Below, piece by piece: positions 1,900-5,799 of a stretch of DNA of 5,799 nucleotides; position 1 is the first letter of the stretch; the number at the start of each line of letters is the position of its first letter. The DNA comes from a virus (lineage: Duplodnaviria; Heunggongvirae; Uroviricota; Caudoviricetes), in IMG/VR virus record IMGVR_UViG_2698536681_000012; one strand, 5' to 3'. Under the pieces are notes generated by a model, which saw only the letters and a list, made by a program, of their open reading frames with translations, made no database searches and had not been told where the DNA came from. A program made the translations under genes and the position numbers.

Positions 1900-2140
1900 C
1901 TGCTGTGGAGTGCTGTGTCCAGCTTATCCACAGCATTTTGTGCACGGTTCTGTGGACAAAATACCTGGTTACCCAGGCCGTGCCGGCACGTTAACCGGGC
2001 TGCATCCGATGCAAGTGTGTCGCTGTCGCCGGCCTCCTCACCCGGTCACGTTTCGTCGTTCCTCCTCCACGCGCTGCGGCTTCGGGGCCGCACCTGCATT
2101 CGTATGCGGTCGCCCGGTAACAGGTGCGGCACGGCCTGAT
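1900..2140 (+). promoter_or_regulatory. GC-rich region with nested inverted repeats (long imperfect hairpin) upstream of the plus-strand operon; candidate single-strand promoter (Frpo/ssi-like) or other structured leader
   Basis: 1974-1985 CAGGCCGTGCCG is the exact reverse complement of 2127-2138 CGGCACGGCCTG. The flanks pair imperfectly (GTTAACCGGG near 1990-1999 against CCCGGTAAC near 2112-2120; TGCATCCGATGCA near 2001-2013 against GCATTCGTATGC near 2095-2106). Local hairpins are at 1903-1933 (CTGTGGA/TCCACAG), 1964-1977 (CCTGG-TTAC-CCAGG), 1979-1990 (palindrome CGTGCCGGCACG) and 2076-2091. The region has no convincing ORF with an RBS and ends at the RBS of the gene starting at 2169. Confidence 0.4.
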
Positions 2141-2168
2141 GGAGGCCGCATGTGAGAGGAGAATTCCC

Positions 2169-2622
2169 ATGCCAAACTGGTGCTCGAATCGTATGTATTT
2201 TTCTGGTGAACCGGCACAGATCGCTGAGATTAAACGACTGGCCAGCGGTGCAGTTACACCGCTTTATCGCCGCGCCACAAATGAAGGTATTCAGCTGTTT
2301 CTGGCCGGAAGTGCCGGACTTCTGCAGATCACTGAAAATATCCGCTCTGAGCAGTGCCCCGGAGTGACGGCTGCCGGACGTGGTGCTGTATCACCGGAAA
2401 ATATCGCGTTCACCCGCTGGCTGACACACCTGCAGAACGGTGTACTGCTGGATGAGCAAAACTGCCTGATGCTGCATGAACTCTGGCTGCAGAGCGGTAC
2501 TGGACAGCGTCGCTGGGAAGAGTTACCGGATGATGTCAGGGAAACTATCACTGTGCATTTCACCGCAAAAAGAGGTGACTGGTGTGGCTTCTGGAGTAAC
2601 GAGGATGTATCGGTGTGGTGGA
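2169..2622 (+). CDS. Hypothetical protein, paralogue A (N-terminal 151 codons visible; continues into N-run)
   Basis: ATG at 2169 with a strong RBS GAGAGGAG (2154-2161, 7-nt spacing). Open frame with enterobacterial-like codon usage, translating MPNWCSNRMYFSGEPAQIAEIKRLASGAVTPLYRRATNEGIQLFLAGSAGLLQITENIRSEQCPG... I do not recognise the family. Confidence 0.8.
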
Positions 2623-3055
2623 NNNNNNNNNNNNNNNNNNNNNNNNNNNNNNNNNNNNNNNNNNNNNNNNNNNNNNNNNNNNNNNNNNNNNNNNNNNNNN
2701 NNNNNNNNNNNNNNNNNNNNNNNNNNNNNNNNNNNNNNNNNNNNNNNNNNNNNNNNNNNNNNNNNNNNNNNNNNNNNNNNNNNNNNNNNNNNNNNNNNNN
2801 NNNNNNNNNNNNNNNNNNNNNNNNNNNNNNNNNNNNNNNNNNNNNNNNNNNNNNNNNNNNNNNNNNNNNNNNNNNNNNNNNNNNNNNNNNNNNNNNNNNN
2901 NNNNNNNNNNNNNNNNNNNNNNNNNNNNNNNNNNNNNNNNNNNNNNNNNNNNNNNNNNNNNNNNNNNNNNNNNNNNNNNNNNNNNNNNNNNNNNNNNNNN
3001 NNNNNNNNNNNNNNNNNNNNNNNNNNNNNNNNNNNNNNNNNNNNNNNNNNNNNNN

Positions 3056-3178
3056 TGGCCAGTGGTGCCGTCACACCGTTTTATCGCCGCGCCACAAATG
3101 AAGGTATTCAGCTGTTTCTGGCCGGAAGTGCCGGACTTCTGCAGACCACTGAAGATGTGTGGTTTGAACCGTGCCCCG
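3056..3178 (+). CDS. Hypothetical protein, paralogue B (internal fragment homologous to paralogue A residues ~25-64); both ends in N-runs
   Basis: 3080-3145 is 66 nt identical to 2263-2328, with about 85% identity over about 110 nt. In-frame translation ASGAVTPFYRRATNEGIQLFLAGSAGLLQTTEDVWFEPCP parallels paralogue A. The copy offset of 817 nt places a start near 2986, inside the N-run. Confidence 0.65.
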
Positions 3179-3475
3179 NNNNNNNNNNNNNNNNNNNNNN
3201 NNNNNNNNNNNNNNNNNNNNNNNNNNNNNNNNNNNNNNNNNNNNNNNNNNNNNNNNNNNNNNNNNNNNNNNNNNNNNNNNNNNNNNNNNNNNNNNNNNNN
3301 NNNNNNNNNNNNNNNNNNNNNNNNNNNNNNNNNNNNNNNNNNNNNNNNNNNNNNNNNNNNNNNNNNNNNNNNNNNNNNNNNNNNNNNNNNNNNNNNNNNN
3401 NNNNNNNNNNNNNNNNNNNNNNNNNNNNNNNNNNNNNNNNNNNNNNNNNNNNNNNNNNNNNNNNNNNNNNNNNNN

Positions 3476-3742
3476 TTCATTCAGGTTGATTTCGACACGC
3501 CGTGGTGTCAGCCGGAAAGCGACGTTATTGCAGAATTAAGCCGCCGTTTCAGCTGCACGCTGGAGCACTGGTATGCCGAACAGGGCTGTGATTTCTGTGG
3601 CTGGCAGTTGTATGAGCGCGGAGAGCTCGTTGATGTGCTGTGGGGGGAACTGGAATGGTCTTCCCCGACAGATGATGATGAGCTGCCGGAAGTCACCGGA
3701 CCTGCGTGGATAATCGACAATGTGGCGCATTATGGCGGATGA
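3476..3742 (+). CDS. C-terminal 88 codons of a hypothetical Cys-containing protein with an acidic tail (possibly the C-terminus of paralogue B, but in a different frame from 3056-3178)
   Basis: Open frame to TGA at 3740-3742, translating FIQVDFDTPWCQPESDVIAELSRRFSCTLEHWYAEQGCDFCGWQLYERGELVDVLWGELEWSSPTDDDELPEVTGPAWIIDNVAHYGG. Codon usage is good and the next gene starts 3 nt downstream. Confidence 0.7.
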   Translation, partial: FIQVDFDTPWCQPESDVIAELSRRFSCTLEHWYAEQGCDFCGWQLYERGELVDVLWGELEWSSPTDDDELPEVTGPAWIIDNVAHYGG

Positions 3743-3745
3743 AGT

Positions 3746-4954
3746 ATGACGGAGACGGGCGGGCAACCGCNNNNNNNNNNNNNNNNNNNNNNNNNNNNNN
3801 NNNNNNNNNNNNNNNNNNNNNNNNNNNNNNNNNNNNNNNNNNNNNNNNNNNNNNNNNNNNNNNNNNNNNNNNNNNNNNNNNNNNNNNNNNNNNNNNNNNN
3901 NNNNNNNNNNNNNNNNNNNNNNNNNNNNNNNNNNNNNNNNNNNNNNNNNNNNNNNNNNNNNNNNNNNNNNNNNNNNNNNNNNNNNNNNNNNNNNNNNNNN
4001 NNNNNNNNNNNNNNNNNNNNNNNNNNNNNNNNNNNNNNNNNNNNNNNNNNNNNNNNNNNNNNNNNNNNNNNNNGTCGGCCTGACCCGTTACCGGACGCGG
4101 TGAACAGCCCACAGGCAGCGGGGAACGGGCACCACAGGGGTGCCCTCCCGNNNNNNNNNNNNNNNNNNNNNNNNNNNNNNNNNNNNNNNNNNNNNNNNNN
4201 NNNNNNNNNNNNNNNNNNNNNNNNNNNNNNNNNNNNNNNNNNNNNNNNNNNNNNNNNNNNNNNNNNNNNNNNNNNNNNNNNNNNNNNNNNNNNNNNNNNN
4301 NNNNNNNNNNNNNNNNNNNNNNNNNNNNNNNNNNNNNNNNNNNNNNNNNNNNNNNNNNNNNNNNNNNNNNNNNNNNNNNNNNNNNNNNNNNNNNNNNNNN
4401 NNNNNNNNNNNNNNNNNNNNNNNNNNNNNNNNNNNNNNNNNNNNNNNNNNNNNNNNNNNNNNNNNNNNNNNNNNNNNNNNNNNNNNNNNNNNNNNNNNNN
4501 NNNNNNNNNNNNNNNNNNNTGGAAAAATGCGGGATTCAGCGTTGTTGGTCACCTGGTCTTCACCAAAAACTACACATCGAAGGCCGCATATGTGGGCTAT
4601 CGCCACGAATGCGCCTACATCCTGGCAAAAGGCCGTCCACGTCTGCCACAAAACCCGCTGCCGGACGTGCTGGGCTGGAAATATTCGGGCAATCGCCATC
4701 ACCCGACGGAAAAGCCCGTTACCAGCCTGCAACCGCTGATTGAGAACTTCACACACCCGAACGCAATTGTGCTGGACCCGTTTGCAGGCAGCGGCTCAAC
4801 CTGCGTCGCCGCCCTCCAGTCCGGACGCCGGTATATCGGTATCGAGCTGCTTGAGCAGTATCACCGTGCCGGGCAGCAACGCCTTGCCGCCGTGCAACGG
4901 GCCATGCAGCAGGGGGCCGCGAATGATGACTGGTTTATGCCGGAGGCTGCGTAA
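3746..4954 (+). CDS. DNA methyltransferase, beta-class N6-adenine/N4-cytosine type (PF01555-like); C-terminal catalytic region visible, N-terminal extent uncertain
   Basis: The visible C-terminal 144 codons (4520-4951) contain HPTEKP followed about 20 residues later by DPFAGSGST (the FxGxG AdoMet-binding motif), then RRYIGIE, an arrangement typical of beta-class amino-MTases such as CcrM. ATG at 3746 gives a 402-codon frame if the N-runs are length-faithful; the visible island 4074-4150 is open only in this frame. Alternatively the MTase starts inside the N-run 4151-4519 and 3746 begins a separate short gene. Confidence 0.8.
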   Translation: MTETGGQPXXXXXXXXXXXXXXXXXXXXXXXXXXXXXXXXXXXXXXXXXXXXXXXXXXXXXXXXXXXXXXXXXXXXXXXXXXXXXXXXXXXXXXXXXXXXXXXXXXXXXXRPDPLPDAVNSPQAAGNGHHRGALPXXXXXXXXXXXXXXXXXXXXXXXXXXXXXXXXXXXXXXXXXXXXXXXXXXXXXXXXXXXXXXXXXXXXXXXXXXXXXXXXXXXXXXXXXXXXXXXXXXXXXXXXXXXXXXXXXXXXXXXXXXXWKNAGFSVVGHLVFTKNYTSKAAYVGYRHECAYILAKGRPRLPQNPLPDVLGWKYSGNRHHPTEKPVTSLQPLIENFTHPNAIVLDPFAGSGSTCVAALQSGRRYIGIELLEQYHRAGQQRLAAVQRAMQQGAANDDWFMPEAA

Positions 4955-5487: not shown

Positions 5488-5799
5488 GGCGTGGCGATGG
5501 AGATCATCAATAACGTGAGAGAAAACCGCCAGGTGACCGTCCCTGCTGAACTGCTGGCGTCCCTGATTCAGACCGCTGAACAGGCATTGTGGAANAAGAC
5601 GAAATCAGGGCAGTTCTTGATGCGGTGCACGATGCGGTACGCAGTGTCAGTTGCCGGGTGGCAGAAGATGCGCGGCGTATCAGGGCGGCGCTGACCACAA
5701 CCGGTCAGACGTTGCTGACCCGCCAGACGCGCCGCTTTCGCCTGGTTGTGAAGGAAAGCGATCACCCCTGCTGGCTCGATGAAGACGACGAAAACCTGC
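5488..5799 (+). CDS. Hypothetical protein, partial; apparent frame break at the ambiguous base 5595; runs off the window end
   Basis: 5488-5594 reads as coding in one frame (..[34 protein letters not shown]). From 5595 the protein-like frame is shifted by one ([68 protein letters not shown], open to the window end), while the original frame turns Arg/Gly/Trp-rich and stops at 5694. May be the same gene as 5190 or a separate one. Confidence 0.5.

Follow-up and report, generated by a model that had tools for sequence, protein, structure and literature searches.

A DUF1281 gene in a conjugative plasmid leading region whose apparent tandem duplication is most likely a product of draft scaffolding

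The leading region of the IncI1 plasmid pESBL-EA11 (NC_018659.1) contains, in order, a dinI-like gene on the minus strand, a hairpin-forming intergenic region of ~390 nt, a DUF1281 gene, a small open reading frame (ORF), a methylase gene, a YubE-like ORF and DUF1380. The methylase of pESBL-EA11 is M.EcoGIX, which methylates the entering single strand and thereby shields the plasmid from restriction (Fomenkov et al. 2020, PMC7736820). A ‘class 3’ single-stranded DNA (ssDNA) hairpin promoter lies 5′ of the M.EcoGIX operon in pESBL, with its start located by 5′ RACE and transcription from ssDNA in the recipient demonstrated by RNA-seq and 5′ RACE (Wen et al. 2025, PMC12672017), and the operon is one of six in the pESBL leading region that are strongly induced within 15 minutes of transfer (PMC12672017). 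The DUF1281/Api92-like proteins encoded on plasmids go by the gene names YubB, YccB, YfdA, YfaB and YafB; they form a leading-region family of 1,949 members that is listed as uncharacterised (Samuel et al. 2024, PMC11541004, supplementary file 3).

BLAST searches against PLSDB and complete Escherichia coli genomes place the 5,799-nt stretch analyzed here (the window) in the leading region of IncI1/IncI-gamma/IncK/IncB-O-type conjugative plasmids. Its minus strand encodes a Y-family polymerase, a umuD-like and a dinI-like gene, and its plus strand encodes DUF1281, a small ORF, a DNA methylase, a YubE-like ORF and DUF1380 genes. The locus is very widespread, matching ~4,900 PLSDB plasmids and 3,070 of 5,426 complete E. 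coli genomes. The window has the pESBL-EA11 gene order, a synteny common to pESBL-EA11 and ten other loci, and its segments are 94-100% identical to that plasmid. The DUF1281 gene lies on the same strand as the M.EcoGIX-type methylase and upstream of it, downstream of a hairpin-forming intergenic region that adjoins impCAB/umuDC-like genes. The methylase is annotated as ‘DNA methylase’ with a length of 684 nt in six of the related loci (L001-L005 and L014; 94-99.9% identity); in the window, its start is masked by a run of Ns that is 92 nt longer than in the references. The window differs from pESBL-EA11 in having an additional 123-nt allelic fragment, a 62-nt allelic overlap and wrong gap lengths, and we attribute all of these differences to assembly. 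The features on which the analysis turns are as follows.

1415-1465, no strand assigned: first copy of a second apparent duplication, comprising the dinI-like gene's promoter and LexA box; allele of the pESBL-EA11 type
1802-1852, no strand assigned: second copy of that apparent duplication, L002-type allele; a 323-N run lies between the copies
1967-2146, plus strand: long imperfect hairpin of ~180 nt on the transferred strand, upstream of DUF1281; arms 1974-2000 and 2112-2138
2169-2622, plus strand: 5′ part of the DUF1281 gene, codons 1-151, beginning MPNWCSNRMYFSG...; PF06924
2623-3055, no strand assigned: run of 433 Ns; compared with every reference, it conceals a non-colinear jump of -384 nt
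3056-3178, plus strand: additional piece of 123 nt, corresponding to codons 24-63 in a second allele of the gene; the allele is of the IncI-gamma/K1 type found in pFORC44_1
3179-3475, no strand assigned: run of 297 Ns; 467 nt in all references, a 170-nt shortfall
3476-3742, plus strand: 3′ portion of DUF1281, running from codon 221 through codon 308 to the stop; ferredoxin-like DUF1281_C domain and acidic tail
4179-4954, plus strand: M.EcoGIX-type single-strand DNA methylase gene in the same operon as DUF1281; visible part 4520-4954

The gene combines Pfam DUF1281 (PF06924) with DUF1281_C (PF18406) and is Api92-like (Protein Data Bank (PDB) 2IJR). The first-pass annotation had not recognized the family; that point is now settled, and what stands of it is that the family, although known, is functionally uncharacterised. 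The PF06924 profile scores 102.1 bits over 2169-2621 (gathering cut-off of 27.3; profile positions 1-115), and PF18406 scores 55.2 bits over 3476-3742 (cut-off of 22.8). The window gene belongs to the group defined by the Api92 fold, which offers no catalytic clue. An alignment of 39 homologues shows conservation of an MPNWCxNR N-terminus and of EINGFNG and DFDTxWxPP motifs; the window gene has MPNWCSNRM at 2169 and DFDTPWCQP at ~3488, and the EINGFNG region falls under Ns. At 50% identity, only 209 clusters among 1.84 billion representatives belong to this small family. No NCBIfam model matched, PHROGs returned only families of unknown function, and our search of the literature on ‘DUF1281’ and ‘Api92’ found no functional study. 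We also considered the leading-region protein HerB/YfjB as a possible identity for this gene and ruled it out, as HerB is a 652-aa ParB-like CTPase (PMC13370423). Many plasmids carry a single-copy gene to which the 5′ part is 98.1-98.7% identical; the 3′ part is 98-99.7% identical to the references, and the visible allele falls inside the normal allelic variation of DUF1281/Api92-like genes.

What sets the window apart is a direct repeat of 123 nt (2239-2361 and 3056-3178; 89% identity) that encloses an exact 66-nt run, 2263-2328 matching 3080-3145, with 13 mismatches among the 57 flanking bases. The first-pass annotation had described this tract, identical at its core and diverging on both sides, and we see it directly. 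Both copies match Pfam DUF1281 from profile position 1 to position 34 or beyond (for 3058-3177, 31.1 bits against the cut-off of 27.3, positions 1-34), and on these matches the repeat is true homology and not chance. The same annotation had pointed to a frame difference, which is likewise present: 3058-3177 is in frame 1 and 3476-3742 in frame 2, across a run of 297 Ns, or 3 × 99. It had also counted two operon genes here, a count that the visible sequence does not bear out. There is one N-terminal part (amino acids 1-151), one C-terminal part (amino acids 221-308) and one extra fragment of 40 codons (amino acids 24-63). Taken at face value, the N-runs leave gene A 364 nt of room against the 473 needed and gene B 757 against 927, so that neither ‘gene’ reaches full length because there is too little room between the visible parts.

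The closest relatives carry the DUF1281 locus in single copy. This is the case in seven complete plasmids, two metagenome contigs and two genome contigs (L001-L010 and L014), in which the gene is 927 nt long (903 nt where a record annotates it from the second ATG). More distant homologues (29-42% identity; L016-L020) are likewise single copy, and no tandem DUF1281 pair occurs in any of 18 gap-free related loci. Across PLSDB, the 123-nt segment is found in 4,773 places in 4,711 records, so that at most 1.3% of records (62 or fewer) have a second copy anywhere in the record.

The only tandem look-alike that we met is joined by Ns. In a Shigella sonnei scaffold (GCA_001258255.1, CXFL01000028.1; L015), a truncated DUF1281 gene is followed by a full one, together with three methylase-YubE units, and the repeat copies are 96.7-97% identical. 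Each repeat junction coincides exactly with Ns: one N at 4367, a block of 21 at 7143-7163 and one more N at 8540. The scaffold resembles the window in showing the same locus, with diverged copies in succession and junctions on N characters; it differs in that longer N-runs (297-433) form the joins in the window, and only 123 nt are repeated there, against 765 nt in L015. The top database protein, a 250-aa S. sonnei entry (P0002), is itself a chimera whose tail is the translated upstream hairpin region. N-joined chimeras of this kind already contaminate public protein databases.

We compared the spacing of the window's segments with that in 11 reference loci, which agree with one another to within a few nucleotides. 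The inter-segment distances in these 11 references are 856, 294, -62, -384, 467, 250/251, 277/278, 157 and 492-500 nt; in the window they are 562, 239, 323, 433, 297, 303, 369, 245 and 1, and none of the nine matches. The seven N-runs that can be compared directly differ from the references by -499 to +385 nt. Every reference puts position 3056 384 nt upstream of 2622. Read at face value, the N-runs would frameshift the methylase (+92; a gene conserved at 99.9%), the umuD/dinI-like pair (-55) and DUF1380 (+88). The Ns behave as scaffold gaps of estimated size, because all nine lengths are off and conserved genes would otherwise be frameshifted; they are gaps of unreliable length and not length-preserving masks. 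This bears out one way out of the frame discrepancy that the first-pass annotation had allowed for, namely that the masked length is not faithful. More generally, the lengths of N-runs in draft scaffolds are unfit for arguments about reading frame.

Restoring the reference distances also restores the gene. Joining 2169-2622 to 3476-3742 through 206 reference nucleotides yields an intact ORF of 927 nt and 308 amino acids, and with 467 nt in place of 297, 3058-3177 is in frame with 3476-3742. The apparent frame shift arises because the 297-N run is 170 nt short of 467 (170 mod 3 = 2), which removes the grounds for a frameshifted or recoded second paralogue.

Two further observations concern the gaps. 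A 3-nt island, ‘ttt’, at 475-477 sits within one N-run and fits the scaffold-gap picture. At 5595, one lone N takes the place of some 500 nt present in all top plasmid hits; we considered a real deletion at this point and rejected it, as all top hits split there with ~500 nt between the pieces and there is no informative microhomology.

The two repeat copies correspond to two alleles that circulate as single-copy genes. At least 30 PLSDB plasmids among the matches listed carry a single-copy gene that agrees with the fragment 3056-3178 at 100% identity, and 97 PLSDB records reach ≥99%; the fragment is 100% identical to L002, which carries the pFORC44_1-type allele, and 90% identical to L001 and L003. 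At each of the 13 variant sites, its counterpart, 2239-2361, has the base of the L004/L001-type allele. The second apparent duplication follows the same pattern: 1329-1465 is 100% identical to the L014 or pESBL-EA11 type, and the L002-type segment 1789-1852 shares 62-63 nt with it on every reference. The window's two non-colinear jumps both cross N-runs, and at each of them two distinct natural alleles of a single site are brought together. By sequence identity, each repeat copy is assigned to its allele.

The alleles along 2169-2622 form a mosaic of L002-type and L004-type sites. For 1789-2622, the best match in PLSDB and the complete E. coli genomes is 98.7% identical, and the exact mosaic is absent from PLSDB. 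We rejected this mosaic as proof of chimeric assembly, given that independent metagenome contigs (L006 and L007) show this local mosaic as well. Allele mosaics like that of 1789-2622 arise naturally too.

The 66-nt core can be placed against the same background. It corresponds to the invariant alignment columns 476-541 between the single-copy alleles of L002 and those of L001, L003, L004 and L005, among which it ranks only as the third- to fifth-longest identical run, longer ones measuring 86, 104, 188 and 208 nt. The aligned copies, when examined for a gene-conversion tract, gave a 66-nt run that was not above the background between matching single-copy alleles. Judged on these alignments, the identity tract is ordinary inter-allelic conservation.

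We consider it highly probable that the window holds one real DUF1281 gene and that a 123-nt contig of a second allele was scaffolded into a gap of mis-estimated length, the pair 1415-1465 and 1802-1852 having the same origin. Both the way in which the scaffold was joined and the presence of mixed alleles in the sample are inferred. The sample of origin would have carried more than one allele of the locus, either on co-resident related plasmids or in a mixture of strains. The 123-nt contig of the second allele would have been placed inside the gap within the DUF1281 gene, where it would mimic the start of a second tandem copy. The 66-nt ‘core’ would then be a stretch in which the two natural alleles happen not to differ, and the frame discrepancy would come from 297 Ns standing for 467 real bases. 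Tandem paralogues with a conversion tract and a frameshift are most likely not a real feature of this DNA.

Co-resident alleles are common: 3,919 matching records are distributed over 3,070 complete E. coli genomes, with up to seven places per genome. In the isolate MOD1-EC7003, two alleles lie on two contigs of different coverage, one of which ends inside the gene, and many database entries for the DUF1281 family are ‘partial’ proteins at contig ends. Where diverged repeats flank N-runs in samples with multiple plasmids, they are usually allelic contigs.

Several observations stand as counterpoints to an assembly artefact. An allele-specific 60-mer had no exact match in genome or viral contigs and matched, among metagenome contigs, just two others that carry the locus in single copy. 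Up to 62 PLSDB records have a second copy of the 123-nt segment somewhere. The repeat junctions lie under the Ns at 2623-3055 and 3179-3475. The 123-nt fragment has only 7-8 nt of flank past its outermost variant sites, unlike a simple de Bruijn bubble arm.

The alternative that survives best is a real heteroallelic partial tandem duplication, produced by recombination of co-resident plasmids, in which a truncated copy is followed by an internally deleted or frameshifted one; we regard it as unlikely. Inter-plasmid recombination would yield copies from different lineages, as seen here, natural allele mosaics show that recombination in the DUF1281 gene is frequent, and truncated, internally deleted and frameshifted DUF1281 variants occur in public data (P0026, P0029, P0031, P0047 and P0087). 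However, adjacent duplications of 387 and 817 nt would have to arise independently, along with a deletion of 170 nt and six more indels in genes that are otherwise 98-100% conserved, all of them under Ns. The arrangement is found in no gap-free relative, and the junctions of its sole look-alike are on Ns. That the source replicon itself has such a duplication at the head of the M.EcoGIX operon, derived from two co-resident IncI-complex plasmids, is likewise unlikely; if true, it would be a snapshot of rapid turnover in an early-expressed leading-region gene.

The explanation offered by the first-pass annotation is very improbable; it had proposed a pair of older paralogues in tandem, with either a recent tract of gene conversion or strong selective constraint on the YRRATNEGIQLFLAGSAGLLQ motif. 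The 66-nt identity is exact, and the motif, which opens the Pfam DUF1281 domain, is moderately conserved down to Api92 and its relatives (27-57% identity). Single-copy genes on different plasmids nevertheless share the same invariant tract, which is not their longest, and nucleotide identity that extends to synonymous sites is the mark of alleles with a recent common ancestor and not of protein constraint. Each copy is identical or nearly identical to a circulating allele, with no sign of divergence within one genome. Two complete ORFs are not found in one contiguous sequence in the window, and the absence of a tandem pair from the 18 gap-free loci also speaks against this account. The differing frames on either side of the 297-N run could suggest that a second DUF1281 copy is a pseudogene or undergoes programmed frameshifting or recoding. 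This is scarcely credible, as the shortfall against all 11 references accounts for the difference, no shift site is visible and the family is read in a single frame everywhere else.

With the window read as containing one gene of known family and uncharacterised function in a well-described operon, its setting can be considered. No known RNA family was found in the window by Rfam at E ≤ 1. The DNA fold of 1940-2168 has an energy of -52.6 kcal/mol (z = -2.64), the hairpin occupies the same position as in pESBL-EA11, and DUF1281 is the first ORF after it. By analogy with pESBL, the hairpin is probably the ssDNA promoter of the M.EcoGIX operon. The DUF1281 gene would be transcribed from this promoter on the incoming single strand, right after conjugative entry; its place as the first ORF past the hairpin suggests that the protein is probably made in the recipient ahead of complementary-strand synthesis. 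The real gene is of moderate interest; it belongs to a family with a solved structure and would be co-transcribed with an anti-restriction methylase right after conjugative entry. The most likely role of DUF1281, to which we give about an even chance, would be that of an establishment or anti-defence factor. In other elements, its conserved neighbours are anti-restriction genes, and the distant homologues lie next to either ArdC or ArdA, a ParB-like gene, PsiB and PsiA.

The promoter region of the dinI-like gene shows a second pseudo-duplication, that is, two natural alleles of one site placed apart, here on either side of a 323-N run. This and two further features of the window have the following positions.

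1415-1465 (in segment 1329-1465) and 1802-1852 (in segment 1789-1852): the two copies of the pseudo-duplication, comprising the promoter of the dinI-like gene and its LexA box
1967-2146, + strand: long imperfect hairpin, immediately 5' of the DUF1281 start codon
3739-4103: small ORF 3' of DUF1281, with two annotated starts, depending on the plasmid

The first copy is the allele of the IncI1 plasmid pESBL-EA11 (100%), the second is of the type found in reference locus L002, and the segments that hold them overlap by 62–63 nt on every reference. A canonical LexA box, CTGT-N8-ACAG (CTGTATGTTTATACAG), is present in the first copy (1412-1427). The second (1797-1814) has 2 nt more in its (TA) run than any of the five aligned references; this gives CTGT-N10-ACAG, which would disrupt the spacing of the LexA box. 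The two additional bases may have arisen in assembling or sequencing a TA repeat, or they may represent genuine regulatory variation.

N characters affect other parts of the window as well. The single N at 5595 stands in place of ~492-500 nt found in all references and thereby joins the DUF1380 gene to the next gene, creating a pseudo-ORF (5491-5694). Within a 562-position N-run, we also observed a 3-nt island, 'ttt' (475-477), which looks like partial filling of a scaffold gap rather than a deliberate mask. A public draft scaffold of Shigella sonnei (L015, GCA_001258255.1, CXFL01000028.1) contains at 3602-9544 a pseudo-tandem DUF1281 and three methylase–YubE units, with N characters at each join. 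The 250-aa 'DUF1281' protein deposited from it (P0002) is a chimera translated across a single N.

The hairpin upstream of DUF1281 matches no Rfam family; it probably corresponds to the 'class 3' single-stranded-DNA promoter that Wen et al. (2025) reported for the pESBL M.EcoGIX operon. Some DUF1281 alleles are annotated in RefSeq from the second ATG, giving 903 nt and an N-terminus of MHFSG or MYFSG. Because the conserved MPNWCSNR N-terminus is intact 5' of that start (L002 3931-3954 and, in a further reference locus, L003 2599-2622), the true gene is likely the 927-nt ORF. The small ORF that follows is annotated with starts in two frames, depending on the plasmid, at ATG 3739, which overlaps the DUF1281 stop, or at ATG 3746, and both versions end at a common stop (4101-4103), which points to a 1-nt indel between alleles (gap of 250 versus 251 nt).

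The more distantly related DUF1281 homologues (29-42% identity) each occur as a single copy. One (L016 2753-3700) adjoins the anti-restriction gene ArdC, and those of three other loci (L017-L019 6001-6930) adjoin another such gene, ArdA, after which come a ParB-like gene, PsiB and PsiA, which argues that the leading-region, anti-defence neighbourhood is conserved. This enterobacterial plasmid locus also occurs in a MAG with the label 'uncultured Oscillibacter sp.' (L009, CAAGJQ010000034.1), and a 497-nt piece of it, with 100% protein identity, occurs in an Acinetobacter idrijaensis assembly (L012, JQCU01000299.1); both occurrences probably result from mis-binning or contamination.
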